IMG/VR virus record: IMGVR_UViG_3300045988_038444
Span: 1-43,689 of that record
Length of the DNA stretch: 43,689 nucleotides
DNA from: a virus
Taxonomy: Duplodnaviria; Heunggongvirae; Uroviricota; Caudoviricetes
Strand: one strand, 5' to 3'
Shown here: one piece after another, positions 2,525-41,412 of the stretch
How the letters are laid out: each line of letters starts with the position of its first letter
Position numbering within the stretch: the first letter of the stretch is position 1
Notes under the pieces: model-generated
Told to the model about the DNA's origin: nothing
The model's database searches: none
The model's input: the letters and a program-made list of their open reading frames with translations, nothing else
Translations under genes and position numbers: made by a program

Positions 2525-3061
2525 ATGCATACTTCACACAAATTTGTAACTGGTTCACCGATTGGTGTCTTTACTCCCGGTAAAATTTACAACCGTGTTG
2601 ACGGGTTCACCCGTGACGGTCGTTCCCGTGGTTTTTATATTGATGACCGTGGTGAATTCCGTTTAACAGATGATGATATGTTCGAACCTGCAGAACAGAT
2701 CCAACTGCGTTTACCACAGATGCCAATGTTTCCGGCCCGTCAGGAACGTCTTAAACTGGCTGCACGCTGGGGAACGTCTGAAATCAGTATCAGTAACTGG
2801 TACAAAGTTGATGACCTGATGAAACCGTGGCGCATCGGTGACGCTATCTGTGGTACTCGTGTTCTTACAGAACCTAATACAACGACGTTTAAACCCGGTG
2901 AACTGGCTGAACTGGCTAATTCCCGTGGTTATCTGCTGTCAGAATTATCCGTTCGTTGGGGGTGGCATTATGGATGTGAAACTTTACACACTATCAGCAT
3001 GGATCCGCGTCGTGTTGCGCTTATCTGGGATATGTTAGAAGGAATGAATCGTCATGACTGA
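2525..3061 (+). CDS. hypothetical protein (178 aa)
   Basis: Long ORF with GAGG upstream and coding-like composition. No motif recognised. Confidence 0.6.
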   Translation: MHTSHKFVTGSPIGVFTPGKIYNRVDGFTRDGRSRGFYIDDRGEFRLTDDDMFEPAEQIQLRLPQMPMFPARQERLKLAARWGTSEISISNWYKVDDLMKPWRIGDAICGTRVLTEPNTTTFKPGELAELANSRGYLLSELSVRWGWHYGCETLHTISMDPRRVALIWDMLEGMNRHD

Positions 3062-5845: not shown

Positions 5846-6165
5846 TGCTTACTCCCGGTTTTACGTTGTTCCGCTTTCAAACCTTCAATAACAACTTTCA
5901 GGTCATTTGTTGACTGTGTTAGCTCTTTAACACTGGTGAGGATTTCAGCGTTCTGTGTTGCCTGATATTCAATTTTGATATCATGGACATCTACACGGGA
6001 TTCCACTCGTTTTGCCAGATTGAGCGCCTCGTGCGCATAGGTTTTTGCATCTACAATATCTTTTTCATTAGAATTGATTTGGTTTTGAGTTACCCCGTAA
6101 CCTACCAACCCCGTGGCAACAAATGCTATTATAGGCCAATACCTCAACACTGGGTTATCAGACAT
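5842..6165 (-). CDS. membrane-anchored coiled-coil protein; first gene of the lysis cassette (holin/antiholin candidate)
   Basis: Single N-terminal TMD (YWPIIAFVATGLVGYGV) followed by a coiled coil. Its stop overlaps the endolysin start. Confidence 0.4.
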   Translation of the reverse strand: MSDNPVLRYWPIIAFVATGLVGYGVTQNQINSNEKDIVDAKTYAHEALNLAKRVESRVDVHDIKIEYQATQNAEILTSVKELTQSTNDLKVVIEGLKAEQRKTGSKQ

Positions 6166-6191
6166 TGTTCTACACTCCTGGAGACTTAAAG

Positions 6192-9164
6192 ATGGCTAAC
6201 TGTAACGATTATATCAGTGCTGATGATTTGAAAACAGGCAAACAAGCGATTTTACATATTGAACACGTTGCGAAAAGTCGTGATGCTAACGGTAATCATG
6301 CGTTGGATGTTACCGATACGATCCGTGATCAATCAGTTACCAACAAGACGCTTGATGGTTTAGAAAACCTGTACAATCAGGCTATATCTCAGGTTGGCTA
6401 TATCACAATGGATAGCTTCGAAGATGGCGCGACATTAACATTGCCTAACCAGGTGTTGCGATATAAGTCGACAGGAGAATATTACCGATGGGACGGTGAA
6501 TTTCCTAAAACCGTTTCTTCTGGTTCAACACCTGAAACTGCTGGTGGCGTTGGTCTTGGCGCGTGGGTTAGTGTTGGTGACGCTTCATTAAGAAGCCAGG
6601 TTTCTGACCCTGATGGCGCAACAAAATATCCAGATTTGCAGATCGCAAGATGGAGAGACACATTCGACCCGCGCGGGTGGAATGCAAAAGGTGATGGGGT
6701 CACCGATGACACCTCAGCGCTTAATGGCGTATTAAACGCCGCACCAGTTGGTCAGAAAATTAATGGCAATGGGAAGACATATAAGGTCACATCCCTGCCT
6801 GACATTAGTAGATTCGTCAATACTCGTTTTGTATATGAACGTATTCCTGGTCAGCCTCTTTTTTATGCTTCTGAAGATTTTATCCAGGGACAGTTATTTA
6901 AAATTACAGATACACCGTGGTACAACGCCTGGACGCAGGATAAAACGTTTGTATATGACAATGTCATCTATGCGCCTTTTATGGCTGGAGACCGCCATGG
7001 TGTAAATAACCTCCATGTTGCATGGGTTCGCTCAGGAGATGACGGGAAGACCTGGACAACGCCGGAATGGCTTACAGATTTACATGAAAACCATCCCACA
7101 GTTAACTATCACTGCATGAGTATGGGGGTTGTCAGAAATCGCCTTTTTGCTGTAATTGAGACGCGGACCGTGAGAGGAAATAAACTGCAGGTTGCAGAGT
7201 TGTGGGATCGCCCAATGAGTCGCAGCCTTCGCGTTTATGGTGGTATAACGAAAGCAGCAAATCAGCAAGTCGCTTATATTCGCATTACTGATCACGGATT
7301 ATTTGCTGGTGATTTTGTCAACTTCTCAAACTCTGGTGTTACAGGTGTTACCGGGAATATGACGGTGACTACTGTTATTGATAAAAATACTTTTACAGTT
7401 ACGACGCAAAATACCCAGGATGTGGATCAGAATAACGAGGGTGGATACTGGAGTTTTGGTACATCATTTCACTCGTCACCATGGAGAAAAACCAGTCTTG
7501 GAACTATTCCTTCTTTTGTTGACGGAAGCACTCCTGTTACTGAGATTCACAGTTTTGCGACGATTAGCGATAACAGTTTTGCTGTTGGCTACCATAATGG
7601 TGATATTGGTCCACGCGAGCTTGGGATACTCTATTTCTCTGATGCTTTCGGTTCTCCTGGTAGCTTTGTTCGCAGACGCATACCTGCAGAATATGAGGCG
7701 AATGCATCTGAGCCATGTGTAAAATATTATGATGGCATTCTGTATCTGACGACCAGGGGGACATTAAGTACTCAACCCGGTAGTTCATTGCACAGAAGCT
7801 CTGATTTAGGTATATCATGGAATTCTCTTCGCTTCCCAAATAATGTTCATCACTCAAACCTTCCTTTTGCCAAAGTTGGCGATGAGCTGATTATTTTTGG
7901 CAGTGAGCGCGCATTTGGTGAGTGGGAAGGAGGAGAACCTGATAACCGTTATGCAGGAAACTATCCAAGAACATTTATGACCAGAGTTAACGTCAATGAG
8001 TGGAGTCTGGATAATGTAGAGTGGGTTAATGTTACTGATCAGATTTATCAGGGCGGAATAGTTAACTCTGCGGTTGGTGTTGGTTCAGTTTGTATCAAAG
8101 ACAACTGGCTGTACTACATTTTCGGTGGGGAAGACTTTCTAAACCCATGGAGCATAGGGGATAACAACAAAAAATATCCTTATGTTCACGATGGTCACCC
8201 GGCTGATTTGTATTGTTTCAGGGTGAAAATTAAACAGGAAGAATTTGTTTCAAGGGATTTTGTCTACGGAGCCACTCCTAACAGAACGCTTCCTACTTTT
8301 ATGTCGACGTCAGGCGTGAGGACGGTTCCTGTACCCGTTGATTTCACAGATGATGTTGCCGTCCAGTCACTGACTGTCCATGCAGGTACATCAGGACAAG
8401 TTCGCGCGGAAGTCAAACTTGAGGGTAATTACGCCATTATTGCGAAGAAAGTACCGTCTGATAATGTTACCGCTCAGAGATTAATCGTTAGCGGCGGTGA
8501 AACAACGTCTTCAGCAGATGGTGCAATGATAACGTTGCATGGTTCCGGAAGCAGTACTCCACGTCGCGCGGTATATAACGCACTCGAACATCTTTTTGAG
8601 AACGGAGATGTTAAACCTCATCTTGATAATGTAAATGCTCTTGGTGGGCCTAGCAACCGTTTCACCACTGCATACCTCGGAAGCAACCCTATTGTTACTT
8701 CTAACGGAGAGAAGAAAACGGAGCCGGTAGTTTTTGATGATGCTTTCCTGGATGCCTGGGGTGACGTTCACTACATCATGTACAAGTGGTTAGATGCTAT
8801 TCAACTGAAAGGCAATGATGCTCGTATTCACTTCGGGGTTATTGCTCAGCAAATTCGTGATGTATTCATTGCACATGGTCTGATGGACGAAAACAGTACG
8901 GATTGTCGTTATGCCGTTCTGTGCTATGACAAGTATCCACGGATGACCGATATGGTATTTTCGCACAATGAAATCGTTGAACACACTGACGATGAGGGTA
9001 ATGTCACTACCACGGAAGAACCTGTATACACCGAGGTGGTTATTCACGAAGAGGGTGAGGAATGGGGTGTTCGGCCTGACGGAATTTTCTTTGCTGAAGC
9101 TGCTTATCAGCGAAGAAAACTGGAAAGAATCGAAGCCAGACTTTCTGCTCTTGAACAGAAGTAA
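6192..9164 (+). CDS. tailspike endosialidase (endo-N-acylneuraminidase) with C-terminal intramolecular chaperone domain
   Basis: ATG 6192 follows GGAGA. Asp-boxes SGDDGKTW (7032-7055) and SSDLGISW (7797-7820). The C-terminal ~150 aa (...ARIHFGVIAQQIRDVF...RRKLERIEARLSALEQK) resembles the peptidase S74 chaperone domain of K1F/K1E endosialidases. Confidence 0.85.
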   Translation: MANCNDYISADDLKTGKQAILHIEHVAKSRDANGNHALDVTDTIRDQSVTNKTLDGLENLYNQAISQVGYITMDSFEDGATLTLPNQVLRYKSTGEYYRWDGEFPKTVSSGSTPETAGGVGLGAWVSVGDASLRSQVSDPDGATKYPDLQIARWRDTFDPRGWNAKGDGVTDDTSALNGVLNAAPVGQKINGNGKTYKVTSLPDISRFVNTRFVYERIPGQPLFYASEDFIQGQLFKITDTPWYNAWTQDKTFVYDNVIYAPFMAGDRHGVNNLHVAWVRSGDDGKTWTTPEWLTDLHENHPTVNYHCMSMGVVRNRLFAVIETRTVRGNKLQVAELWDRPMSRSLRVYGGITKAANQQVAYIRITDHGLFAGDFVNFSNSGVTGVTGNMTVTTVIDKNTFTVTTQNTQDVDQNNEGGYWSFGTSFHSSPWRKTSLGTIPSFVDGSTPVTEIHSFATISDNSFAVGYHNGDIGPRELGILYFSDAFGSPGSFVRRRIPAEYEANASEPCVKYYDGILYLTTRGTLSTQPGSSLHRSSDLGISWNSLRFPNNVHHSNLPFAKVGDELIIFGSERAFGEWEGGEPDNRYAGNYPRTFMTRVNVNEWSLDNVEWVNVTDQIYQGGIVNSAVGVGSVCIKDNWLYYIFGGEDFLNPWSIGDNNKKYPYVHDGHPADLYCFRVKIKQEEFVSRDFVYGATPNRTLPTFMSTSGVRTVPVPVDFTDDVAVQSLTVHAGTSGQVRAEVKLEGNYAIIAKKVPSDNVTAQRLIVSGGETTSSADGAMITLHGSGSSTPRRAVYNALEHLFENGDVKPHLDNVNALGGPSNRFTTAYLGSNPIVTSNGEKKTEPVVFDDAFLDAWGDVHYIMYKWLDAIQLKGNDARIHFGVIAQQIRDVFIAHGLMDENSTDCRYAVLCYDKYPRMTDMVFSHNEIVEHTDDEGNVTTTEEPVYTEVVIHEEGEEWGVRPDGIFFAEAAYQRRKLERIEARLSALEQK

Positions 9165-13031: not shown

Positions 13032-13519
13032 GCGTTATTTAAGAGTAAGCCAGTATCAATAATTTCTTTAAGGTAACAAGCAGCATAATCACCCTGGCAT
13101 TTAGTGATTAACAATCGTGATGCCATTGCACAACGGTCGATTACCGGAACAGCTTGTAACTGTAAATCGACAGATCCTTTCCATCCTACAACAGAGGATG
13201 AAGGGTTACTGACAATCTGAACAACGTGTTCCTGAATCAAACCGTTCACAAACAGTTGCATCACAAACCGCTTACTACCTTCAGCGATTTCCAGATTATA
13301 AAAATCGTCCCACCACTGAAGCATCGCCGGACTATATAACTGAATTGTACACGATACCTGAGCAGGTCCACCAAAGGCGCTACGACCTAACCGTGATAAC
13401 GTCCCGGAAACATCAGATTTAGTTACACCCCACGGTGGGCTATAACTGTAATTATCACGCTCAGGTAACACCATTTTCGCGCCGTACTCAAGCCGTGGTA
13501 AATCATCTGTATTGCTCAT
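13016..13519 (-). CDS. minor tail protein (gpM-like / distal tail)
   Basis: Lies immediately downstream of the tape measure gene. Called on synteny only. Confidence 0.45.
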   Translation of the reverse strand: MSNTDDLPRLEYGAKMVLPERDNYSYSPPWGVTKSDVSGTLSRLGRSAFGGPAQVSCTIQLYSPAMLQWWDDFYNLEIAEGSKRFVMQLFVNGLIQEHVVQIVSNPSSSVVGWKGSVDLQLQAVPVIDRCAMASRLLITKCQGDYAACYLKEIIDTGLLLNNAWTPE

Positions 13520-16101
13520 TATATTTTCCTGTTCGCATCATAGTTAGACCTGAACGCTTTATTCGTCTGACTGTACGGGTCATTCCATTGTGCCGCTGAT
13601 TGTCGTGGGAATTCTTCACCTATGATAAGCACTACGTCATCCCGTGTTAATCCTTGTTTCACCTGAACACGTTCGCCACCGTAGTTATGAACCTGAATAT
13701 TAGGTGATGAACCACCTTCAGATCCGGGGGTGTATGTCCCACGATTCATTGCTTCCAGAGTGCTACGATAACGACTCGTAGCCTGTTTGGTACTGACAAA
13801 TTCACCATTACTCAAACGTGCGTTTATACTGTCACTCTGACCTGTACCCGGACCTTTAACATAACCACCCGTTGCAAAACCTGTTGCGGCCACAGACTGA
13901 ATGTTACCTAACACGCTTGTCCCGTATGATAAAGCCTGTGCAATGAACGGAATATTCGCCGGGAACGGCAACGCCATAGCCTGACTAACGGCTGTCCACA
14001 GGTTAATACTCGCCTGTGCGATACTAAAGGCTTTAGACAGTGCAAACATCGCTTTATATGCGTTTGATTGCTCACCTTTAGATTGTGCCAGACCAGCAGC
14101 CATTTGACCCAAAAAATCAGCACTGGATTGTAGCAACAAGCTGTAGTTAGCATTTGCAAGATTCATACGGGCTTGTTCCCCGGCCTGTTGAATCTGCGTT
14201 TTCATGTCCTGGTATTGTTGCTCGTTAATTAAATCTTGTTCACGGGCTTGTTGTATGACAGTAAGGCGTTGTGCTTCCTGTTGATTAACCTGATCAACCT
14301 GTGATTGATACGGGTTTAACTCACCCTGTACATCGGTTTGTACCTGTGAAACCTGACCAGCTAACTGTTGCGCCTGCTGTTGACGTTGCAATGCAGCCAC
14401 ATGTGCATCAACAGCGGCACGTTCAGCATCAGTCGCGTCTTTATTCAGTCGTGACTGTGCTTCTGCCTGTTGTGATGCCAGCGTTAACTGTTGACGTACC
14501 TGATATTCTTTCTGATATGTTGCTGTAAGTTGTTCAACAGACGACCCCTGTGTTAAGGCAATCTGAACCTGTTCACGGGCTAACTGAACATCATAATTAC
14601 CAGCATTGATTTTATCCTGAAGCGTTTTCAGGTATTTCTGGTTAGCAGCCTGATTACGTTCCAGTTCTTTCTGTGCACGTTTAGCCGCAGATGCTTCAGC
14701 ACTCGCTGATTTCTTCTGGTTTTTTTGATTTTCTTTATATTCTGCCTGTTGTTTCAACAACGCAGCATAGTCTGCAATCTGTTCCTTAGTTGCTTTATTA
14801 CCCAGTTTCTGACTTGCTGCCAGTTCATAGTTACCGTCAGCAAGCGCCTGGGTGTAGGTGATCTGTTCTTTCAGGTTTTTAATCTGTTTTTGTGCTTTCG
14901 CGTCTGATGCATTTGTCCCTTTTATAGAAATAGGTTTTGTAGCATCACGGTTTTTTTTAGCTTGTTCGTATCCAGCCGCAGATGCTTTAACAAATCTATC
15001 AACCTGGTCATTGTACGCTTTTGCATTATTTACATCATCGTTTGACCAGACCAGATCAGCAAGGGATGCCCCAGTAGCACCTGGTTGTAACTTAGATATT
15101 ACGCCAGCTATTGACCACAATTTATCAGCAGTTGTTGAATCATCGCCTAATTTATTGATGAAACCTGTAAGTGTATCAATAGCGTTTACAGCAAGATTTG
15201 ATGCTCCAGTCACGTCATTCATGCTTGCAACAAGCGTGGCTAACGATACAGATAACGAATTCGTAGCTTGATCTAAAGACCGTGGCAATTTGCTAAATTC
15301 TTCATCAACATTTTGCGTTTGACGAATAATAGCATTCAATGCTTGTTCCGCTGTGAGTTCACCATCCAGCATTTGCTGACGTAACTCACCCATTGAAACA
15401 CCTAAACCAGCAGCCATCTGTCTTGCCAGTTCTGGCATCTGTTCAACAATGCTGTTAAATTCTTCCGCACGAACTACACCAGATGAAATTGACTGACCAA
15501 ACTGACGTAATGCGTTAGACATTTCTTCAGCAGATGAACTACCAACACGACCTATTTTTTGAAGTGTTTCAGTTAATCGTAATATCTGATCGTTTGTTGC
15601 GCCGCTATCCTTTAATGACGATGATAAGGTTTCCCATAAACGTTCAGTATCAGCAAGACCACCACCTGTTTTAGAGGCAATATCCGCGAGTGTTTGAAAT
15701 GTTTGTTCGGCTGATGATGTACTCCCGGTCAATCTTGCAATACGAGCTTCGAGTTGATTAGCTGCATCACCCGCAACAATAAACGCTTTTCCTAACTCAA
15801 TAGCAGAAGACACCGCACCTATTGCCATAAAACCACGAACGGCGTTTGTTGCAAGATTTACGCCAGATGCCATCGACTTTAAAGATGATGTAGCGTTACC
15901 AGTATTTGACGCCATTACTTGTGCAGATTTTGCAGCTTGCTGTTCACTTTTTGATAAAGTGTTTGCCGCTTGTGCAGCAGATTTTGCAGAATTAGCTGTT
16001 TGGTCTAACTGGTTATTAAGGCTGTTAAGATTTCTGTCAGCGTTACCAGTGTCTATTTTTATATCAATCGGATACTGTGCCATTGTGGTTAACCTTTTCA
16101 C
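13519..16101 (-). CDS. tail tape measure protein
   Basis: 860 aa, Ala/Gln-rich with long predicted helices. Lies between the G/GT chaperones and the minor tail proteins. Confidence 0.85.
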   Translation of the reverse strand: MKRLTTMAQYPIDIKIDTGNADRNLNSLNNQLDQTANSAKSAAQAANTLSKSEQQAAKSAQVMASNTGNATSSLKSMASGVNLATNAVRGFMAIGAVSSAIELGKAFIVAGDAANQLEARIARLTGSTSSAEQTFQTLADIASKTGGGLADTERLWETLSSSLKDSGATNDQILRLTETLQKIGRVGSSSAEEMSNALRQFGQSISSGVVRAEEFNSIVEQMPELARQMAAGLGVSMGELRQQMLDGELTAEQALNAIIRQTQNVDEEFSKLPRSLDQATNSLSVSLATLVASMNDVTGASNLAVNAIDTLTGFINKLGDDSTTADKLWSIAGVISKLQPGATGASLADLVWSNDDVNNAKAYNDQVDRFVKASAAGYEQAKKNRDATKPISIKGTNASDAKAQKQIKNLKEQITYTQALADGNYELAASQKLGNKATKEQIADYAALLKQQAEYKENQKNQKKSASAEASAAKRAQKELERNQAANQKYLKTLQDKINAGNYDVQLAREQVQIALTQGSSVEQLTATYQKEYQVRQQLTLASQQAEAQSRLNKDATDAERAAVDAHVAALQRQQQAQQLAGQVSQVQTDVQGELNPYQSQVDQVNQQEAQRLTVIQQAREQDLINEQQYQDMKTQIQQAGEQARMNLANANYSLLLQSSADFLGQMAAGLAQSKGEQSNAYKAMFALSKAFSIAQASINLWTAVSQAMALPFPANIPFIAQALSYGTSVLGNIQSVAATGFATGGYVKGPGTGQSDSINARLSNGEFVSTKQATSRYRSTLEAMNRGTYTPGSEGGSSPNIQVHNYGGERVQVKQGLTRDDVVLIIGEEFPRQSAAQWNDPYSQTNKAFRSNYDANRKI

Positions 16102-16114
16102 GAAGCATATACAC

Positions 16115-16142
16115 AGTTTAACACGGGTCTAAAAAGCGACAA
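16115..16142 (-). promoter_or_regulatory. candidate minus-strand promoter for the tape-measure operon (TTGTCG, 16 nt, TAAACT)
   Basis: Read on the minus strand it sits back-to-back with plus-strand cassette P1. It shares CCCGTGKTAAACT with the terL upstream region. Confidence 0.35.
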
Positions 16143-16145
16143 ACG

Positions 16146-16187
16146 TTTAAAATAATTCTTGACGGATTACACAATGATGTGTAACCT
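16146..16187 (+). promoter_or_regulatory. conserved sigma70 promoter cassette P1
   Basis: TTTAAAATAATTC + TTGACG (16159-16164), 17 nt, TAACCT (16182-16187). Confidence 0.7.
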
Positions 16188-16217
16188 ACAATCAACAAAA
16201 CAACGGAGAGTTACAAA

Positions 16218-16397
16218 ATGGCTACTTTCATCATTCTTTTCTTAATCGCTGCTGTATATCTGATCCCAGCACTCATCGCGATTAACGTTAAACATAAACA
16301 ACAAACAGCAATTATTTTACTTAACATCTTTGCGGGTTGGACATTCGTCGGTTGGTTAGGTGCGTTAATCTGGTCTGTGTTAAAAAGCGACAAATAA
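16218..16397 (+). CDS. small membrane protein, superinfection-immunity (Imm_superinfect)-like
   Basis: 59 aa, just below the track cutoff: MATFIILFLIAAVYLIPALIAINVKHKQQTAIILLNIFAGWTFVGWLGALIWSVLKSDK. It has two TMDs and a GWTxxGWxxALIW signature. RBS is GGAGAG. Confidence 0.65.
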   Translation: MATFIILFLIAAVYLIPALIAINVKHKQQTAIILLNIFAGWTFVGWLGALIWSVLKSDK

Positions 16398-16398
16398 G

Positions 16399-17310
16399 AT
16401 GAGTAGGAAACGTTTAACCACAGAAGAGTTTATCACGCGTGCCCGTGAAGTTCATGGGCACAAATACGATTACTCACTAGTGGAGTATTTGAATTGGCGC
16501 ACACCTGTGAAAATCATCTGTCCTATACATGGAGTGTTTGAACAAATTCCTAATAATCATTTAAAAGGACGCAAGTGTTTATTCTGTGCAGGAAATCAAC
16601 AATCAAATACCAATGAATTTATCACAAGGGGGCGCGAAGTTCATGGGGGTAAGTATGGTTATTCGTTGGTGAAATATAAAGACTCTCGGACCAAAGTGAA
16701 AATCATTTGTCCAATACACGGAATGTTTGAACAACGTCCATATAGTCACTTGCAGCAAAAAGCAGGTTGCCCACAATGTGCTTGGGAACAATTGTCTGAA
16801 CAAAGACGTTTATCCGCCGAAGAATTCATTACTCGTGCTCGCGAAGTTCACGGGGACCGTTACGACTATTCGTTGGTGGAGTATGTTAACAATTCCACCC
16901 CTGTAAAAATTATTTGTTCAGAACACGGTGTGTTTGAACAGACACCGGGCAATCACACATTTATGAAAGCTGGCTGTCCCCAGTGCGCTGAAACAGGTTT
17001 TAATCCGTCAGAACCCGGCACGTTATATGTACTCGCTGATGATAAACAGTATCCCACTCTGATTAAAATTGGTATTACAAACGACTTAAAACAGCGACTA
17101 CGACAACTACAACGACGAACTCCGCATCTTGTGGTTAAACTTGTATCGTATCCGTTCCCACATGGCGCTGACGCTTACAAACTGGAACAAGAGGTACACA
17201 AGGTCTTTCACGAACTTAATGCGCGTCTCAAAGGCTTTGACGGTGCTACAGAGTGGTTTAAATACTCTCCTGCAATCCTCGATTACATAAATGAAAAAGC
17301 CCGGAACTAA
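16399..17310 (+). CDS. T5orf172 (GIY-YIG-related) homing-endonuclease-like protein with three N-terminal zinc-ribbon repeats
   Basis: Three ~60-aa modules (EEFITRAREVHGxxYDYSLVEY...KIICPxHGxFEQxPxxH...GCPQCA). The C-terminus reads GTLYVL...IKIGITNDLKQRLRQL...ATEWF. Confidence 0.75.
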   Translation: MSRKRLTTEEFITRAREVHGHKYDYSLVEYLNWRTPVKIICPIHGVFEQIPNNHLKGRKCLFCAGNQQSNTNEFITRGREVHGGKYGYSLVKYKDSRTKVKIICPIHGMFEQRPYSHLQQKAGCPQCAWEQLSEQRRLSAEEFITRAREVHGDRYDYSLVEYVNNSTPVKIICSEHGVFEQTPGNHTFMKAGCPQCAETGFNPSEPGTLYVLADDKQYPTLIKIGITNDLKQRLRQLQRRTPHLVVKLVSYPFPHGADAYKLEQEVHKVFHELNARLKGFDGATEWFKYSPAILDYINEKARN

Positions 17311-17330
17311 CCGGGCTTATGTTTATTTTT
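17297..17330. terminator. bidirectional hairpin terminator at the end of the endonuclease gene
   Basis: AAGCCCGG-AACTAA-CCGGGCTT with a T-rich tail downstream and an A-run upstream. Confidence 0.55.
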
Positions 17331-18025
17331 CTTCATCTCGACAACACGTGCAGACCGCAATGCTGTTAACAATTTCCATAGGAACTGTACATCAACGTTG
17401 TACACCCGTGCGTAACGTTCACAGGCAACCCAATCACTATTTATCAAATCAAGATAAGCATACCAATAAAAAACAGCATCAGGTCGCAATTCAGGACGTT
17501 TCTGTACAACAACCGGAACAGATATACCACGTGCAGCCGCCCCTTGTGTAACCCAGTCCAGGTCGTCCCCGTCTGTCTTATCGTTCCACAAGAGGAAGTC
17601 GATCAGTTTTTTTCAATCTGTTTTTCCCATTCGTCCTGGAAGAATGCGGAATTAATTGCGAACTGAATAACACGGCTGTAGATCACCTGACCAAAACGTT
17701 CATCACTTAACAATTCAATAGCTTCTTCGACACTGAATGGTTCCGGTTTGTCATCTTCACCAATCAGTTTCCAGTCCAGCATAAGAACGTTAGCCACAAA
17801 CTTAACACCTTCTGGTGTATATTCCTGATTCCACAGTTTTTCAAAGAAGTTTTCAGACAACACACCGTTCTGTTTTACATAGTCCGCGACTGTTACGTTA
17901 TATACCTGGTTAGCGGTGTTCAGGTTCAACACGGTGATACTGAAATTTTCATTTAAAATCAGTTCAGCAGAAGACTTCAGCACCAGTGGAGAAAGTGCTT
18001 TTTTCAGATGGTCAAACTTTGACAT
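17307..18025 (-). CDS. tail assembly chaperone GT fusion via -1 programmed frameshift
   Basis: The G frame reads ...GAA AAA AAC TGA. A slip on A_AAA_AAC (plus coordinates 17612-17606) enters the ORF at 17307-17591, which has no RBS or ATG of its own. Confidence 0.6.
17603..18025 (-). CDS. tail assembly chaperone G
   Basis: 140 aa and acidic. Lies between the major tail and tape measure genes and ends at the slippery site. Confidence 0.7.
   Translation of the reverse strand: MSKFDHLKKALSPLVLKSSAELILNENFSITVLNLNTANQVYNVTVADYVKQNGVLSENFFEKLWNQEYTPEGVKFVANVLMLDWKLIGEDDKPEPFSVEEAIELLSDERFGQVIYSRVIQFAINSAFFQDEWEKQIEKN
17606..17612 (-). promoter_or_regulatory. -1 ribosomal frameshift slippery heptamer A_AAA_AAC
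   Basis: The run of 7 T on the plus strand (17607-17613) is A7 on the minus strand and fits X_XXY_YYZ in the G frame. The stop codon follows immediately. Confidence 0.6.
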
Positions 18026-18091: not shown

Positions 18092-18133
18092 TTTAAAATA
18101 ATTCTTGACGAATTACATCTGTTAAGGTATCTT
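18092..18133 (+). promoter_or_regulatory. conserved sigma70 promoter cassette P2
   Basis: TTTAAAATAATTC + TTGACG (18105-18110), 17 nt, TATCTT (18128-18133). Confidence 0.7.
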
Positions 18134-18165
18134 TAACTCAACGAAACGAACTGAGGGTAAGAGGG

Positions 18166-18790
18166 ATGGCGATTATTAACATGGGTTGGCATAGTTCTGT
18201 TTTTGAAGGAAATGTTAAACTCCTGGAAGGGGCATATAGTCCTATCCATCGTAATGATATTGGTGGCGATTACCCACCATCTTATTTTCTATACGAAACT
18301 GATCATGGGTGCTGTATCAAAGAACGTGAACGTAACGGTTACCATGATTCAGATTTTGAAATGTTAATATGGAACCCTGAAACAAAAAAGCGCTTCATGG
18401 TATACATTTGCAACTACCCGTGGTTGGTGTTATCCATGCTATGGTTCACGCCCAGATGCAACACCAGAAGTTTTAGAAGCATATAATATTTATGAACAAC
18501 AGCAAGAGGAAAAACGGCAACGTTATTGCAAAATAAAAAGAGTAAACAAGCAACGCAAACTGAACGCACAGTTTAGATTAATAGTACGTGAATTTGGTGT
18601 TGATCGCGAACAAGTTGAAAAACTTTATAAATTATATCACCCAGATATGTTCCCTGTATTTTGTAAACTTCTTAACAGTAATTTACGTTCTGATTTCCGT
18701 AAAAGTTTACGTAAACAACTAGTTGATTGGTTAAAAGGGAACGGTAAGTACGATAAACCATTTTCACCTAAACAAATTCAGTATTTATGA
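18166..18790 (+). pseudogene. frame-disrupted hypothetical gene (island gene inside the tail module)
   Basis: The frame-1 ORF runs 18166-18486. The +1 frame is open for 141 codons (18368-18790) with protein-like sequence and no start codon until near its end. The two frames overlap around an A6 run at 18384-18389. Confidence 0.6.
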
Positions 18791-20759: not shown

Positions 20760-21184
20760 TGATTAAACCTCACCATTATTCCGGCTTTTAATATAGCACG
20801 TTCGACAAACCCGGAAGGTGTCTGTGTACTGCTACCACCATTGAGAACCCCAATGTAAGGAACGTTGTTAGTAATATGCAGTTCCTGACCATTAACTTTA
20901 ATACTGCTGATAGTGACTGTATCCTGTTCGATACGTGCTTTACTGGCTTCAACATTACCTGTTGGTGTATCAGGACTATTAGCGGGTTGCCCCTGATCGA
21001 ACCACCAGTTGTTGCTTGCCCAGCCACTCAATATTGGTGTACCATCAGGAGGCTCACTTATGAGTATGTTACGTAGTGTTAAAACATATCTAATGACTTG
21101 ACGATCCGTAAAATCTTGTAAGTCGGCTTTTATGTCTTTAAACACTCCAGTAATACGATTTATATCATTGATTTTGCTAGTCAT
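20756..21184 (-). CDS. neck protein (HK97 gp10-like head-tail joining)
   Basis: The start is taken at MTSKINDIN (ATG 21184). The track start at 21250 would run into the divergent endonuclease gene. Function called on synteny. Confidence 0.45.
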   Translation of the reverse strand: MTSKINDINRITGVFKDIKADLQDFTDRQVIRYVLTLRNILISEPPDGTPILSGWASNNWWFDQGQPANSPDTPTGNVEASKARIEQDTVTISSIKVNGQELHITNNVPYIGVLNGGSSTQTPSGFVERAILKAGIMVRFNQ

Positions 21185-21206
21185 TGACAAACCTAAAGGT
21201 AGAAAA

Positions 21207-22103
21207 ATGGGCGGTAAAAGACTAACCAAAGAACAACTAGAGCATAACATAAAAGATATTTGTCAATCAAAAAATTACAAATTTATAAAATGGAAAGACG
21301 GGTTTAAAAACAAAGAATCACGAATTATTTTATCTTGTGTTACACACGGGGAATGGGACACTAAATGTTATCATTTTTTGAATGGTTCTGGTTGTCCGAT
21401 CTGTGGTGGAACACGAACCACAAAAGGGTTAAGAATTGCACAGATTAAAGACAGTTTAACAAATTCTAAATCAAAGTTTATTAAATTTAAAACTAATTTT
21501 CAAAATGGAAATTCTGTTTGTTTGCTGAGCTGTATTGATCATGGTGGATGGGAGACAACAGTCAATAGACTAATCTTTACATCTGTTGATTGCCCGTTGT
21601 GTATAACGAATAGACAGAAAACTAAACAAGAACGAGAAATTGAAATAACAAATAGATGTAAAGAAACAGGGTTGTTTTTTAATAAGATATTCGACGAACA
21701 TCCGACATGGAAATCTAAAATATCATTAAAGTGTTCAACGCATGGTGATTTTGTTACAACAATTAATTCTTTTCTTAGTAAACAAAAAGGTTGTCCAAAC
21801 TGTAGTAAAACAGGGTTTAAAGCTGGTAAGTATGCAACACTTTATGTCTTGCGGTCCACATGCGGTCGTTACGTTAAAATAGGTATCAGTAATTGTGTAG
21901 AGCAAAGAATTAATACACTTCGTAGAAAAACACCATTTGATTTTCAAGTAATAGAAAAATTGAATGGACACGGGGCAACCATTCGTTCACTTGAAAAAGA
22001 TTTTCATTCTCATTTTGAATCTGCAGGATTAACCGGGTTCGATGGTTGTACAGAGTGGTTAAAATGGAATCCAAATATAACCACTCTGATACGGATGTTA
22101 TAG
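21207..22103 (+). CDS. T5orf172 (GIY-YIG-related) homing-endonuclease-like protein, second family member
   Basis: Three Cys/His modules (CVTHGEW...GCPICGG; CIDHGGW...DCPLCI; CSTHGDF...GCPNCS). The C-terminus reads ATLYVL...VKIGISNCVEQRINTL...CTEWLKW. Strongly AT-rich. Sits antisense between two neck genes. Confidence 0.75.
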   Translation: MGGKRLTKEQLEHNIKDICQSKNYKFIKWKDGFKNKESRIILSCVTHGEWDTKCYHFLNGSGCPICGGTRTTKGLRIAQIKDSLTNSKSKFIKFKTNFQNGNSVCLLSCIDHGGWETTVNRLIFTSVDCPLCITNRQKTKQEREIEITNRCKETGLFFNKIFDEHPTWKSKISLKCSTHGDFVTTINSFLSKQKGCPNCSKTGFKAGKYATLYVLRSTCGRYVKIGISNCVEQRINTLRRKTPFDFQVIEKLNGHGATIRSLEKDFHSHFESAGLTGFDGCTEWLKWNPNITTLIRML

Positions 22104-26568: not shown

Positions 26569-26978
26569 TATTCCACATCCTCATAATATGCAGTTCCACC
26601 GATACTATATCCCGTATATTCACCAGTCTGAAACTTTTTCAAAACTTCGTCATCAGTTATCAACGTACCAACAATGACGCCTGTCTGATCCAGTTTATCA
26701 ACCAGTCCAAAACTTGCTGCAATGTCTTCGGTCATCGGGAACGCAAACACAACTTTCCCAACAGGTTGTTGATTATGCATATTATCCATGATGCGCTGAT
26801 CAGAATTCATGAAGTCCAACCATGCTTTCAGAGTGACATCCTCGGGAAATTGCTCGTTGTCCGTGTCTGTGTAAATTTCTAACTGACCTGTCTCCTGATT
26901 ACGTTTTTTACAGATACTACCCCAACCGAATACCATACGTAGTGAGTTGTCAACCTTATTAACTTTTACGTTAATCAC
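26568..26978 (-). CDS. XkdF-like prohead protease domain protein
   Basis: ...FGWGSI...TDTDNEQFPED...HNQQPVGKVV...GEYTGYSIGG resembles the XkdF/S78-type family (from memory). Confidence 0.45.
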   Translation of the reverse strand: MINVKVNKVDNSLRMVFGWGSICKKRNQETGQLEIYTDTDNEQFPEDVTLKAWLDFMNSDQRIMDNMHNQQPVGKVVFAFPMTEDIAASFGLVDKLDQTGVIVGTLITDDEVLKKFQTGEYTGYSIGGTAYYEDVE

Positions 26979-27385
26979 GGGGATTGTCCTCGTATTGTTT
27001 CAACATGACTAAATTCTAACATTTCGGATGAATAATTGCACTGGTGATACACGCTGTTTACAACGTTACCGAATATCTCAGAAAGATTCTTGATCGGTTC
27101 AACAGCAGTCGTTACTGGTTCAACAGCAGTCGTTACTGGTTCAACAGTAGTCGTTACCGGTTCAACAGTAGTCGTTACCGGTTCAACAGCAGTCGTTACT
27201 GGTTCAACAGCGTCCAGATGTTCAGCGACAACCTGGAAAAACACTGTGTTAGTTTCACGGTCAATAATAACCACTGTGCTGGAACTATCTTCAACAATGC
27301 TGAATGAGTAGTCGTAACGATCACCGTGAATTTTACGGGCGCGACGAATGAATTCGTCTGTAGCAACTCTGATGTTCGGATCCAT
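26975..27385 (-). CDS. repeat-containing protein with a degenerate endonuclease-type N-terminal module
   Basis: The start is taken at MDPNIRV (RBS AAGAAGGG). ATDEFIRRARKIHGDRYDYSFSIVED parallels EEFITRAREVHGHKYDYSLVEY of 16399-17310, but the Cys/His ligands are lost. This is followed by (VEPVTTA/T)x5. Confidence 0.5.
   Translation of the reverse strand: MDPNIRVATDEFIRRARKIHGDRYDYSFSIVEDSSSTVVIIDRETNTVFFQVVAEHLDAVEPVTTAVEPVTTTVEPVTTTVEPVTTAVEPVTTAVEPIKNLSEIFGNVVNSVYHQCNYSSEMLEFSHVETIRGQSP
27096..27213. repeat. 21-bp tandem repeat, about 5.6 copies
   Basis: ggttcaacagcagtcgttact-type units start at 27096, 27117, 27138, 27159 and 27180, with a partial unit at 27201. In frame on the minus strand. 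Confidence 0.95.
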
Positions 27386-27530
27386 ACATTCAACCCTTCT
27401 TGTTCTCTTAACCACAGGGTAGTTGTGTCGGTGTAATCCGTCAAGAATTATTTTGCGTATAGATTCATGGGAAGTATGCGACCCCCTATACCTTTTAAAC
27501 CTCTCCTACTTGCAGCAACTTTTACTACTT

Positions 27531-27741: not shown

Positions 27742-27783
27742 TTTAAAATAATTCTTGACGGATTACACCGACGCAACTATCTT
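27742..27783 (+). promoter_or_regulatory. conserved sigma70 promoter cassette P3
   Basis: TTTAAAATAATTC + TTGACG (27755-27760), 17 nt, TATCTT (27778-27783). Confidence 0.7.
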
Positions 27784-27814
27784 GTGGTTAACAGGAAGAA
27801 AAAGGAGACATGCA

Positions 27815-27883
27815 ATGATTTACTACATACTGGCTTTCATGATTTTCGCAGCACCTGTGATCGTAGGAATAGTAAGAGGTTAA
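27815..27883 (+). CDS. possible 22-aa hydrophobic leader peptide
   Basis: AGGAGA, 5 nt, then ATG. Encodes MIYYILAFMIFAAPVIVGIVRG. Its stop is 4 nt before the next ATG. Confidence 0.3.
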   Translation: MIYYILAFMIFAAPVIVGIVRG

Positions 27884-31342: not shown

Positions 31343-31385
31343 TTTAAAATAATTCTTGACACATTGCAAGCAGTAACACTAACAT
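31343..31385 (+). promoter_or_regulatory. conserved sigma70 promoter cassette P4
   Basis: TTTAAAATAATTC + TTGACA (31356-31361), 17-18 nt, CTAACA/TAACAT. Confidence 0.65.
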
Positions 31386-31419
31386 TTGTCACGAACGAAA
31401 CACACTGAGGAATCAAACA

Positions 31420-32249: not shown

Positions 32250-32494
32250 CGATATTTAAAAACTCAATGGGCGATACTGTCGCGTATCTACCGAAAGTCA
32301 TTATTGCAGATCCATCCTGTGTTGATTACCCACACTGCAAGCAATCTGAAGCGACCTACAACGACCTGTGCGCTGATATTATGCGTGGTTGTGACATCGG
32401 TATTGAACGACTTCAGAAACTGCGGGAGGAATACGAAAAACGGTCTGTTCAGGCAGCAATGGGTTTACCGCCTGTATACGATAATTTAAAATAA
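32246..32494 (+). CDS. hypothetical protein (82 aa)
   Basis: ATGA overlap upstream. Its last codons lie inside promoter cassette P5. Confidence 0.55.
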   Translation: MTIFKNSMGDTVAYLPKVIIADPSCVDYPHCKQSEATYNDLCADIMRGCDIGIERLQKLREEYEKRSVQAAMGLPPVYDNLK

Positions 32495-32526
32495 TTCTTG
32501 ACGGATTACACAAGGACGTGTAACCT
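32485..32526 (+). promoter_or_regulatory. conserved sigma70 promoter cassette P5
   Basis: TTTAAAATAATTC + TTGACG (32498-32503), 17 nt, TAACCT (32521-32526). Promoter plus leader closely match P1 across 72 bp. Confidence 0.7.
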
Positions 32527-32556
32527 ACAAACATCAAAACAAAGGAGGACACAATC

Positions 32557-32901
32557 ATGTTATTCGCTATTTTATGGGTTCTTTTCTCTCTGATTATCGC
32601 GGGTGTTGCCAAACAAACGGGTCGCAACCCTGGTGCATGGTTCTTTATCGCATTTCTCACAAGTCCTGTGATCGGTGGTCTGATTCTGTTAATCGCATAT
32701 CTGTTTAACGGTAAGGTCGTAAGGGAACAACCGAAAGTGGTAACCACGGGGATGTTTAGTAACTACCTTGCAGCCTATAACTATGTTAATGAACATTACA
32801 CCATTGATACTGACTACCGGGCAGAAGCAGCCAGTGACCTGTTTAAGTATGCTACCTGTCGCGAGGACTGTGATAAACTGATCGCGAAGTACGTTAACTG
32901 A
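32557..32901 (+). CDS. membrane protein (two N-terminal TMDs)
   Basis: MLFAILWVLFSLIIAGVA...AWFFIAFLTSPVIGGLILLIAYLF followed by a soluble tail. RBS AGGAGG. Confidence 0.6.
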   Translation: MLFAILWVLFSLIIAGVAKQTGRNPGAWFFIAFLTSPVIGGLILLIAYLFNGKVVREQPKVVTTGMFSNYLAAYNYVNEHYTIDTDYRAEAASDLFKYATCREDCDKLIAKYVN

Positions 32902-34638: not shown

Positions 34639-34708
34639 GTTCTACAGGCTCCATACGGTTTACGGTTCTTAACGTATGTTATATCAGTGATGGTTTTTTT
34701 GCACGGTG

Positions 34709-34749
34709 TTAAAATAATTCTTGACGAATTGCAAACGTGCGATTATGCT
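34709..34749 (+). promoter_or_regulatory. conserved sigma70 promoter cassette P6
   Basis: TTAAAATAATTC + TTGACG (34721-34726), 17 nt, TATGCT (34744-34749). Confidence 0.7.
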
Positions 34750-34780
34750 TTAGTCATCAAATGAACGAAGGGTGATAACT

Positions 34781-38126: not shown

Positions 38127-38168
38127 TTTAAAATAATTCTTGACAGATTGCAGAAGTGGTGTCAGACT
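38127..38168 (+). promoter_or_regulatory. conserved sigma70 promoter cassette P7
   Basis: TTTAAAATAATTC + TTGACA (38140-38145), 17 nt, CAGACT. Confidence 0.6.
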
Positions 38169-38200
38169 CTGATTATCAATTGAACAGGAGTAACACAGGT

Positions 38201-39320: not shown

Positions 39321-39527
39321 ATGTTCAGATACGTTTTAAAATTACTCGCCATTATTGCAACATGGCTAATCATACAGTCCGGGTATGACCTGCGTGTTCG
39401 TAACCAATGTTCAGACTATCAACGCATTACACGAACTGCGACAATCTACAGTCACGGTATTTGTTACGCGGCAGACAGTGACGGACAGTTTAAAATAATT
39501 CTTGACGGTTTACACATCATCAGATAG
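39321..39527 (+). CDS. small protein with an N-terminal signal/TMD (68 aa)
   Basis: AGGAG, 8 nt, then ATG 39321. Encodes MFRYVLKLLAIIATWLIIQSG... Its last codons lie inside promoter cassette P8. Confidence 0.5.
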   Translation: MFRYVLKLLAIIATWLIIQSGYDLRVRNQCSDYQRITRTATIYSHGICYAADSDGQFKIILDGLHIIR

Positions 39528-39530
39528 ACT
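39489..39530 (+). promoter_or_regulatory. conserved sigma70 promoter cassette P8
   Basis: TTTAAAATAATTC + TTGACG (39502-39507), 17 nt, TAGACT (39525-39530). Confidence 0.65.
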
Positions 39531-39562
39531 TCAGTTTGTGTAAAACAACTGGAGTTATCACC

Positions 39563-41017: not shown

Positions 41018-41346
41018 GAACAGAACAGGAACGTATTATTCAGTGGTTATGTTCTGGTGAAACCGGACTAAGCTCTAAAACGATGGTCTGCATTCACACG
41101 GGTAATGAAATGGGTTACGGCTGGGAGTTTAGAGCACCCTTTGACGTTTCTGATTTTCGCCGTTGTTGGTTCCTGGTTGAAGCTGTGCCAGAAATCAGAA
41201 ACAGTTTTCCGTTGATTGCTGAAAAGTGTCCGGCGTTTAAAGGTGTGATTGAAAACTGGGACGTTATTAGCGCAGCTTATGAACGTGAACGCGGATCCGG
41301 TAAATGTCCTGAAACGTATCGGTTACTGAAAGAAAGTTTAAAATAA
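41014..41346 (+). CDS. hypothetical protein (110 aa)
   Basis: ATGA overlap with rdgC. Its last codons lie inside promoter cassette P9. Confidence 0.55.
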
Positions 41347-41378
41347 TTCTTGACGGGTTGCACAAGGAAGTGTAATAT
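41337..41378 (+). promoter_or_regulatory. conserved sigma70 promoter cassette P9
   Basis: TTTAAAATAATTC + TTGACG (41350-41355), 17 nt, TAATAT (41373-41378). Confidence 0.7.
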
Positions 41379-41412
41379 TACCTCATTGAAACGAATTATG
41401 AGGAACCGGAAA

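Follow-up and report, generated by a model that had tools for sequence, protein, structure and literature searches.

Superinfection exclusion in phage T4 is conferred by Imm together with Spackle (PMC7677548). Gene 15 of HK97, the first moron to be described, codes for a protein of the inner membrane that prevents injection of the genome in a manner dependent on the tail (Cumby et al., 2012, reviewed in PMC3594210; PMC10883804). T4-type phages have elements called PeSLs, in which a sigma-70-like promoter has an A/T-rich portion upstream, where the preceding gene has its stop codon, and a Shine–Dalgarno sequence plus ATG at the 3' side; PeSLs are located at indel borders and are able to form mini-circles (PMC2839356; PMC4122927). 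Here, we compare with these systems a locus at ~16126-17291 of the IMG/VR virus record IMGVR_UViG_3300045988_038444 (43,689 nucleotides (nt); the whole stretch is called the window below), where a promoter-plus-leader cassette, P1, heads imm, a gene for a protein of 59 amino acids (aa) from the superinfection-immunity (Imm_superinfect) family, followed by a homing-endonuclease-like gene.

The 59-aa protein shares with T4 Imm the Pfam family, an alignable domain, and the character of a small two-helix inner-membrane protein of a virulent phage; it differs in length (59 aa vs 83 aa), in the absence of the C-terminal tail, and in sequence (28% identity). The tails differ too, as that of T4 is contractile, whereas in a siphophage, such as that of the window, the tape-measure protein is believed to form the channel for the DNA. 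HK97 gene 15 occupies the same chaperone/tape-measure slot, has its own transcription signals, and also encodes a small inner-membrane protein; however, gp15 is a single-helix protein of the YebO family, has no homology to Imm, and is expressed from the prophage of a temperate phage, while the window unit belongs to a virulent phage, is by its orientation transcribed against the tail operon, and is accompanied by a homing endonuclease. The endonuclease gene resembles free-standing GIY-YIG-type endonucleases (T4 seg, T5orf172 family) in joining a nuclease domain to repeated zinc-ribbon DNA-binding modules, in its intergenic position between conserved essential genes, in its presence/absence polymorphism, and in having several paralogues per genome, but it is far more diverged (66-86%) than its flanks (97-99%).

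The explanation that we favour as a whole, with a probability of roughly 0.75, is as follows. Rightward genes would be arranged in small islands or operons, each with one conserved cassette of ~72 nt at its head. At P1, such a cassette would have arrived with an insertion in which the cassette, preceded by 19 nt from an imm 3' end, is followed by a complete imm and the homing endonuclease gene; the whole would be closed by a terminator that was already there. Host sigma-70 RNA polymerase would fire P1 soon after infection; the 59-aa Imm would enter the inner membrane as a two-helix hairpin and, like T4 Imm, stop the DNA of phages that arrive later from reaching the cytoplasm; the endonuclease, made from the mRNA that also encodes imm, would carry the unit over to relatives whose site is empty; and the repeated cassettes would act as recombination junctions for the exchange of downstream genes.

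The imm-endonuclease unit between the chaperone and tape-measure genes

The locus contains the following features (window coordinates; ORF, open reading frame).

13519-16101, minus strand: tape-measure gene
~16126-17291, plus strand: inserted unit (putative remnant of an imm 3' end, P1, imm, homing endonuclease gene)
16130-16143, plus strand: copy 1 of a 14-bp direct repeat, TAAAAAGCGACAAA, just upstream of P1
16146-16217, plus strand: P1 cassette, with an A/T tract (16146-16158), -35 element TTGACG (16159-16164), 17-nt spacer, -10 element TAACCT (16182-16187), A/C-rich leader, and GGAG (16205-16208)
16211-16393, minus strand: antisense ORF, 60 aa, TTG start; a shadow ORF
16218-16397, plus strand: imm, 59 aa, two-helix membrane protein of the Imm_superinfect family
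16381-16394, plus strand: copy 2 of the 14-bp direct repeat, covering imm codons L55-K59
16399-17310, plus strand: free-standing homing-endonuclease-like gene, 303 aa, starting 1 nt past the imm stop
17297-17318, both strands: pre-existing bidirectional hairpin terminator, annotated in Sasha, with the endonuclease stop codon in its loop; it closes the P1 unit
17307-17591, minus strand: tail assembly chaperone gene

BLAST matches to 15900-17400 come from the Sashavirus/Nonanavirus phages BDX09P1, 536P12, KarinMuster_Bas82 (Bas82), and PJ16. The first-pass annotation, made from the sequence alone, had placed the P1 unit and the endonuclease gene between the tape-measure and chaperone genes in the manner of a moron, and the comparison with relatives bears this out: the two genes are direct neighbours in PDP46, AVIO78A, and Sasha, 72 bp apart, vs ~1.17 kb in the window. 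The empty site of these three phages reads CACAGTTTAACACG-TTAACCATAATAT-ATGAAAAAGCCCGG, where the last part opens the hairpin terminator; an insert of ~1166 nt stands in the window in place of the 13 nt TTAACCATAATAT. From 5' to 3', it is formed by GGTCTAAAAAGCGACAAACG, the P1 cassette, the 59-aa ORF, and the 303-aa ORF. Besides the window, the insert is carried by BDX09P1, 536P12, Bas82, PJ16, and one IMG/VR contig. Of the own signals by which a moron is recognized, the promoter would be the family cassette at the 5' end, and the terminator the existing hairpin of the empty site. The G+C content of imm is 37.8% and that of the endonuclease gene 42.4%, with 42.9% for the window. The hairpin at 17297-17318 lies within the tail operon of all relatives, with the insert or without it (3013-3030 of the Sasha stretch compared), and may act as an attenuator setting tape-measure expression.

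The 59-aa ORF has the expected AGWTFVGWLGALIW signature and two hydrophobic segments. The search against Pfam profiles proposed in the first-pass annotation yields Imm_superinfect (PF14373) at 62.5 bits (E 3.4e-17; curated gathering threshold 27.9 bits), with residues 13-54 aligned to profile positions 1-42 of 42, that is, to the whole model; T4 Imm scores 58.2 bits on the same profile. The protein also matches PHROG 1039, 'immunity to superinfection' (68 bits). BLASTP against T4 Imm gives E 9e-8, with 28% identity and 47% positives over 47 residues, and tblastn retrieves 841 phage records, annotated T-even imm genes (~40% identity) among them. The Kyte–Doolittle hydrophobic segments are at residues 1-26 and 31-48, separated by the loop NVKHKQQ, and the pattern of T4 Imm is similar. 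By these matches, the 59-aa protein is to be regarded as a true member of the Imm_superinfect family. The gene had been recognized before: the existing records of Bas82 and PJ16 label it 'superinfection immunity protein' (Bas82_0048 and PJ16_056), and in Bas82 it is additionally flagged as 'moron'. Genes of the Imm family also adjoin the tape-measure gene in unrelated siphophages, namely Skatevirus Bas79 (2501-2695 of the stretch compared) and Pseudomonas phage YMC11/02/R656, whose 195-aa protein (1971-2558 of the stretch compared) joins the Imm domain to a zinc-ribbon-like C-terminus. A literature search by the Pfam family name returned nothing functional on siphophage Imm proteins.

The 303-aa protein shows an internal threefold repeat; Pfam assigns it three DUF723 zinc-ribbon repeats (E 4e-17) and a GIY-YIG-like T5orf172 domain (E 4e-13), and it matches PHROG 681, 'endonuclease' (E 5e-85). 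The family is present in 593 phage records, often in several copies per genome. Among the five insert-bearing phages, nucleotide identity is 66-86% for the endonuclease gene, 98-99% for imm, and 97-98.6% for the tape-measure gene. The endonuclease gene has had a history unlike that of its neighbours, with allele replacement or rapid decay, and the PJ16 version is shortened. The presence/absence polymorphism of a homing gene is seen among the relatives, the predicted homing target being the empty-site sequence CACGTTAACCATAATATATGAAAAAGCC, and the endonuclease would mobilize the imm unit.

An exact 14-mer repeat of any kind, such as that spanning P1 and imm, arises in only 22 of 3000 shuffles of the 1.6-kb region. 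Read in frame, copy 1 gives GLKSDKRLK*, with the stop provided by the TAA of the cassette, as for the genes upstream of two other cassettes, P5 and 41350 (see below). The Imm protein of Bas79 ends with VKSDDKK, hence a KSD-rich tail is native to Imm, and copy 1 is most plausibly what is left of an imm 3' end. A target-site duplication was considered and rejected, as the 14-mer is absent from the empty sites of PDP46, AVIO78A, and Sasha, and the LKSDK tail belongs to Imm itself; GGTCT ahead of both copies was rejected as an extension of the homology, as three relatives have GGGCT at the second copy. The simplest reading, which we infer from this arrangement, is that in the donor a family cassette came after imm, the insert holding slightly more than one unit of 251 bp (cassette plus imm). 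This unit with its 14-bp terminal redundancy is the sole hint of mini-circle formation; the predicted junction left by its excision (deletion) has no match in IMG/VR, and the pattern of a full imm 3' end joined to a cassette is absent from the IMG/VR search. In Bas82, both 14-bp copies have the same G>A change, which points to conversion of one copy by the other or to a donor allele of its own.

The cassette family and the origin of P1

Besides P1, the window contains nine members of the cassette family; the numbers by which some of them are called are given first in the descriptions.

18092-18165, plus strand: cassette 18105, heading the second opposite-strand island within the tail gene cluster (ORF 18166-18486)
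27386-27457, minus strand: cassette 27444(-), the sole minus-strand copy, followed by a 136-aa ORF
27742-27814, plus strand: cassette 27755, whose first cistron is a 22-aa hydrophobic ORF
31343-31419, plus strand: cassette 31356, upstream of the dUTPase operon
32485-32556, plus strand: cassette P5, with the -35 element at 32498-32503 and -10 element TAACCT at 32521-32526
34708-34780, plus strand: family cassette
38127-38200, plus strand: cassette 38140
39489-39562, plus strand: cassette 39502
41337-41412, plus strand: cassette 41350, of the P1/P5 spacer subtype (CACAAGGAAGTGTAA), with the Shine–Dalgarno sequence inside a leader hairpin

P1 and P5 had been described in the first-pass annotation as a duplicated cassette. 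The likeness is real: the two can be aligned over the whole length, with ungapped identity of 59/72, and 58/63 up to the Shine–Dalgarno sequence; the ATG follows exactly 72 nt from the cassette start in both (16218 for P1, 32557 for P5); and the spacer, -10, and leader elements pointed out there (GATTACACAA, TAACCTACAA, and CAAAACAA-GGAG) occur in both. The part that did not stand is duplication in two copies, as the family has at least ten. The P1/P5 repeat is far beyond chance, yet these are two members of a ten-copy family rather than a pair.

The 15-mer AAAATAATTCTTGAC has ten exact copies in the window, nine on the plus strand and one on the minus strand, while 0.29 matches are expected by chance with two mismatches allowed; for the 19-mer TTCTTGACGGATTACACAA, seven matches are seen at up to three mismatches vs 0.05 expected. 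The same core is present in 15 copies in Bas82 and ~10 copies in 9NA and, among IMG/VR and metagenome contigs, is confined to the 9NA-like phage group. The motif string had no match in the literature searched. All ten window copies share, in register, the core AAAATAATTC-TTGACR-nATTRCA, a 17-nt spacer, a TAnnnT-type -10 element, and an A/C-rich leader of the form TCAACgAAACgAAC that is followed by a GGAG-like Shine–Dalgarno sequence. In 10/10 copies, the start codon follows the first T of TTGAC by 59-64 nt; therefore, the 72-nt spacing from cassette to ATG is a property of the whole family and is not special to P1 and P5. The proposed layout would thus comprise an A/T-rich UP-like tract, the -35 element TTGACR, the core nATTRCA, the 17-nt spacer, and the TAnnnT -10 element, and then an A/C-rich, probably unstructured leader, the Shine–Dalgarno sequence, and the start codon. 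With at least ten copies, nearly every rightward transcription unit is headed by a family cassette.

Downstream of the -35 element, P1 and P5 are the closest pair of the family (76% identity vs 33-57% for other pairs), and in Bas82 they are identical over the 27 nt after it. The second closest pair is 27444(-) and 27755(+), at 74%. Lying back-to-back ~300 bp apart (27386-27457, minus strand; 27742-27814, plus strand), these two divergent cassettes have a spacer subtype of their own (GATTACACCGACRCAAC) and form a second case of pairwise-similar cassettes.

The two cassettes differ in their distribution. P5 is present in PDP46, AVIO78A, Bas82, PJ16, BDX09P1, 536P12, and Klebsiella phage KP13-27, while 9NA and Sasha have neither P1 nor P5, and the orthologous junction in them (gp26/gp25 in 9NA, gp20/gp19 in Sasha) has no intergenic space and no cassette. 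The absence there, set against the presence in the E. coli-infecting clade and in KP13-27, marks P5 itself as an insertion of ~75 nt. It is placed between two co-oriented core genes, the upstream one (...DNLK*) taking its stop codon from the TTTAAAATAA of the cassette, as is also the case at 41350 and probably at 39502. P1 is restricted to carriers of the imm-endonuclease insert, namely the window, four GenBank phages, and one IMG/VR contig; PDP46 and AVIO78A have P5 and lack P1. This distribution suggests that P5 is the older copy and P1 a recently derived paralogue of a P5-type cassette.

The gene behind P5 lies as follows.

32557-32901, plus strand: 114-aa membrane protein, a core gene of the 9NA group (9NA gp25, Sasha gp19)

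Its two N-terminal helices, noticed at first pass, are seen both in the hydropathy profile and in the AlphaFold model (residues 2-20 and 25-51; mean pLDDT of the model 74), which continues with a linker modelled at low confidence and, at the C-terminus, a bundle of three helices. The protein belongs to PHROG 27401, a family of unknown function, and has no match in Pfam, PADLOC, or, with the AlphaFold model as the query, among annotated BFVD entries. Full-length homologues form only four to five clusters among 1.8 billion representatives, all from the 9NA group. The N-terminal hairpin (residues 1-47, 32557-32700), with the motif GRNPGxWFFIAFLTSPxIGG, is widespread and lies outside Pfam coverage: at E<0.001, it is found in 226 representative proteins, elsewhere fused to zinc ribbons or SHOCT domains. 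Homology between Imm and the 114-aa protein was considered and rejected, as BLASTP gives no alignment and the weak PHROG 8436 matches of both were judged to reflect hydrophobic bias. The two being unrelated, the common promoter subtype is no evidence for an exclusion role of the 114-aa protein.

Small membrane proteins also occur behind another cassette. The 22-aa hydrophobic ORF after cassette 27755 (27815-27883, plus strand; MIYYILAFMIFAAPVIVGIVRG) ends 4 nt ahead of the next gene, and hence the first cistron is a small membrane protein in 3/10 window cassettes. The leader hairpin of cassette 41350 (41380-41404, CCTCAT...ATGAGG) includes the Shine–Dalgarno GAGG; in Bas82 (~54806, minus strand) and in an IMG/VR contig it reads CTCAC...GTGAG, one pair being altered on both sides (T-A to C-G), and it may be a translational control element. 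The 9NA counterpart of this cassette is at ~1453 (minus strand).

Competing readings of the promoter and of imm

The cassettes are probably host sigma-70 promoters in early use, given the consensus-like -35 element, the 17-nt spacing, A2 and T6 of the -10 element, the UP-like tract, the absence of an annotated phage polymerase or sigma factor, and the position before DNA-metabolism and small accessory genes. In P1, the -35 hexamer TTGACG matches the sigma-70 consensus in 5/6 positions, and the -10 hexamer TAACCT in 3/6, A2 and T6 included, with the 17-nt spacer between them and an A/T tract upstream. We consider it quite unlikely that the 23-nt core AAAATAATTCTTGACRnATTRCA is instead the site of a phage-encoded factor (an activator, sigma-appropriator, or anti-terminator), with the units, including P1-imm, expressed in the middle or late phase. 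Conservation does extend 8 nt past the -35 element into the spacer and is invariant between phages with only ~70% flank identity, the -10 elements are weak and variable, and one copy lies ahead of head genes; however, TTGACR, the 17-nt spacer, A2/T6 of the -10 element, and the A/T tract form the classical layout of a sigma-70 promoter with an UP element, the Bas82 and 9NA annotations contain no RNA polymerase or sigma gene, and most copies precede DNA-metabolism or small accessory genes. An inverted repeat, TTACAC-N4-6-GTGTAA, spans the spacer and -10 element of P1 and P5 and is retained in 5/6 positions in 41350; only in these three cassettes is there a weak hairpin, GGaTTACAC(A)-loop-(T)GTGTAACC (z -1.7 to -2.3). 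It was rejected as an intrinsic terminator on either strand, as no T-run is adjacent. The extra likeness of P1 and P5 could then reflect a shared operator, by which a phage or host regulator co-regulates P1, P5, and 41350, rather than a recent duplication. This agrees with the folding of the repeat, with the P1 relatives, where the central bases vary (ATGA, AAGGAC, AAAGAC) and the arms are mostly kept, and with the orthologous P5 of KP13-27, which retains TTACAC...GTGTA despite ~69% flank identity. Still, the left arm is merely the family-wide core ATTRCA; BDX09P1 and 536P12 have TTGCAC without a compensating change; the likeness continues through the leader to the Shine–Dalgarno sequence, beyond what an operator needs; the 9NA orthologue of 41350 is without the motif; and no candidate regulator has been identified. 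A shared operator is thus an improbable source of the likeness.

For imm, the choice of strand is practically settled. The ORF track used in the first-pass annotation reports the antisense ORF at 16211-16393, which was called spurious there; it does exist and is open and intact in five of five close relatives, but has a TTG start and no match to Pfam or any other family, and its frame is a shadow frame, open opposite the Bas79 imm and open or nearly so opposite the T4 imm. The plus frame, with Pfam and PHROG matches and 841 phage records, is the gene. The close relatives, proposed as the arbiter between the two ORFs, are uninformative, as both ORFs are intact in them and only five sites vary. 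The opposite view, with a real gene on the antisense strand and a chance ORF on the plus strand, is in effect already refuted; the antisense ORF is a shadow ORF, not a gene. By analogy with T4, Imm would block DNA entry of later phages. It is unlikely, though less so than an operator or phage-factor origin of the cassettes, that the protein instead serves in lysis timing, protection from lysis from without, or self-exclusion of progeny, or that imm is a translated leader feeding ribosomes to the endonuclease gene. The endonuclease ATG, 1 nt past the imm stop, has no obvious Shine–Dalgarno sequence of its own, the family name is based on T4 alone, PADLOC has no model for an Imm-like protein, and the variable sites of imm, all of them non-synonymous, also speak for a role other than exclusion. 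Nevertheless, the full Imm_superinfect domain is intact and scores high, imm-family genes recur beside tape-measure genes in Bas79 and R656 without the endonuclease, and imm is conserved at 98-99% vs 66-86% for the adjacent endonuclease gene.

Several observations weigh against host-driven early expression, exclusion by Imm, and an acquired unit, the reading that we prefer. The -10 element has only 3/6 consensus positions, and P1 was not called by the consensus scanner (threshold 4/6 per hexamer); the minus-strand copy 27444 lies upstream of head genes, so the family is perhaps not purely early. All five variable sites of imm among close relatives (T3S, V24I, V44I, S53A, D58N) are non-synonymous, though conservative, and these relatives give no signal of purifying selection. 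Exclusion is read from a single source, the 28% identity to T4 Imm over 47 residues, and we know of no siphophage protein of the Imm family that has been tested. No donor of the insert was found by phage tblastn, in metagenome contigs, or in IMG/VR: the next-best phage homologue of imm is only 47% identical in tblastn, and two homologues with 63-65% identity are on tiny metagenome contigs without useful context.

Gene-swap junctions in the 9NA-like group

Further features of the window bear on the phage and on its mobile genes.

6165-9164, plus strand: complete endosialidase tailspike gene, with End_N_terminal, beta-propeller, beta-barrel, tail-spike, and Peptidase_S74 chaperone domains
21132-22103, plus strand: second endonuclease gene (CapR/DUF723/T5orf172) in the tail gene cluster, in a position like that of 9NA gp46
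26975-27385, minus strand: 136-aa ORF with a DUF723-like N-terminus and VEPVTT repeats, right after cassette 27444(-)

The P5 region additionally matches PDP46, AVIO78A, Sasha, 9NA, SP069, and several Klebsiella phages. These BLAST relatives and the complete endosialidase tailspike together identify the window as most of the genome of a virulent 9NA-like (Nonanavirus/Sashavirus) siphophage specific for the K1 capsule; Bas82, in contrast, depends on the O16 antigen, and 9NA has an endorhamnosidase. Virion genes of the 9NA group are on a single strand (the minus strand of the window), broken by many small gene islands of opposite orientation. Such islands are likewise remarked upon in the 9NA genome announcement, according to which the lifestyle of the group has yet to be examined in molecular detail (PMC4153490). 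The second endonuclease gene (21132) has no family promoter ahead of it.

Comparison of orthologous cassettes in the window and Bas82 reveals that at 5/10 of them (18105, 27755, 31356, 38140, 41350) identity drops to 0.45-0.62 immediately downstream, while the upstream flank or the cassette itself retains 0.9-1.0 in most of the five; at 18105, it is 0.53 downstream and 0.98 upstream. The island that this cassette heads, between the chaperone and major tail genes (18092-18486), is hypervariable, with 44-61% identity among otherwise 97% identical phages (compared were Bas82, PJ16, BDX09P1, 536P12, and Sasha gp43), and its variable stretch starts right after the conserved cassette. In metagenomic relatives, orthologous cassettes head different first genes. 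Cassettes of this siphophage lineage are gained and lost, as with P5 and P1, and mark gene-swap junctions, which is modestly new.

Like PeSLs, the family is a sigma-70-like promoter in many copies, in which an A/T-rich part contains the stop codon of the preceding gene and the 3' end contributes a Shine–Dalgarno sequence and start codon; its copies precede small accessory genes, a few of these inside virion modules, and are found where indels and replacements have their borders. The differences are the number of copies (~10-15 vs ~50 PeSLs), the unrelated lineage with non-homologous sequences, and the absence of the G/C-rich stem-loop terminator of PeSLs, in place of which there is a weak 6-9-bp hairpin in the P1/P5 subtype only. 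Whole-cassette folds of P1, P5, and 41350 have -8.6 to -15.5 kcal/mol, and cassette 18105 shows nothing beyond chance (z -0.5). As the stem-loop terminator is lacking, the resemblance is functional and does not imply family membership. It is possible, and we put it forward tentatively, that the cassettes are functional analogues of PeSLs, that is, portable stop-promoter-start modules whose homology serves gene swap and capture, and that P1-imm is a copy of more than one unit, made via a tandem repeat or a mini-circle, later linked to the endonuclease, in the moron slot.

These results do not overturn current views. Modestly new are the gain and loss of cassettes at swap junctions, the derivation of P1 from a P5-type copy, and the remnant that points to a cassette-flanked imm donor. 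They provide a testable promoter map for the little-studied 9NA phage group and extend promoter-cassette-driven modular gene shuffling beyond T4-type myoviruses; in phage therapy with K1-specific phages, an exclusion gene could matter for the design of cocktails. Finally, an Imm-type gene of a virulent siphophage lies in the slot of the injection-blocking moron of HK97, a coincidence suggesting that proteins of this kind and the injection channel formed by the tape-measure protein may be functionally connected.

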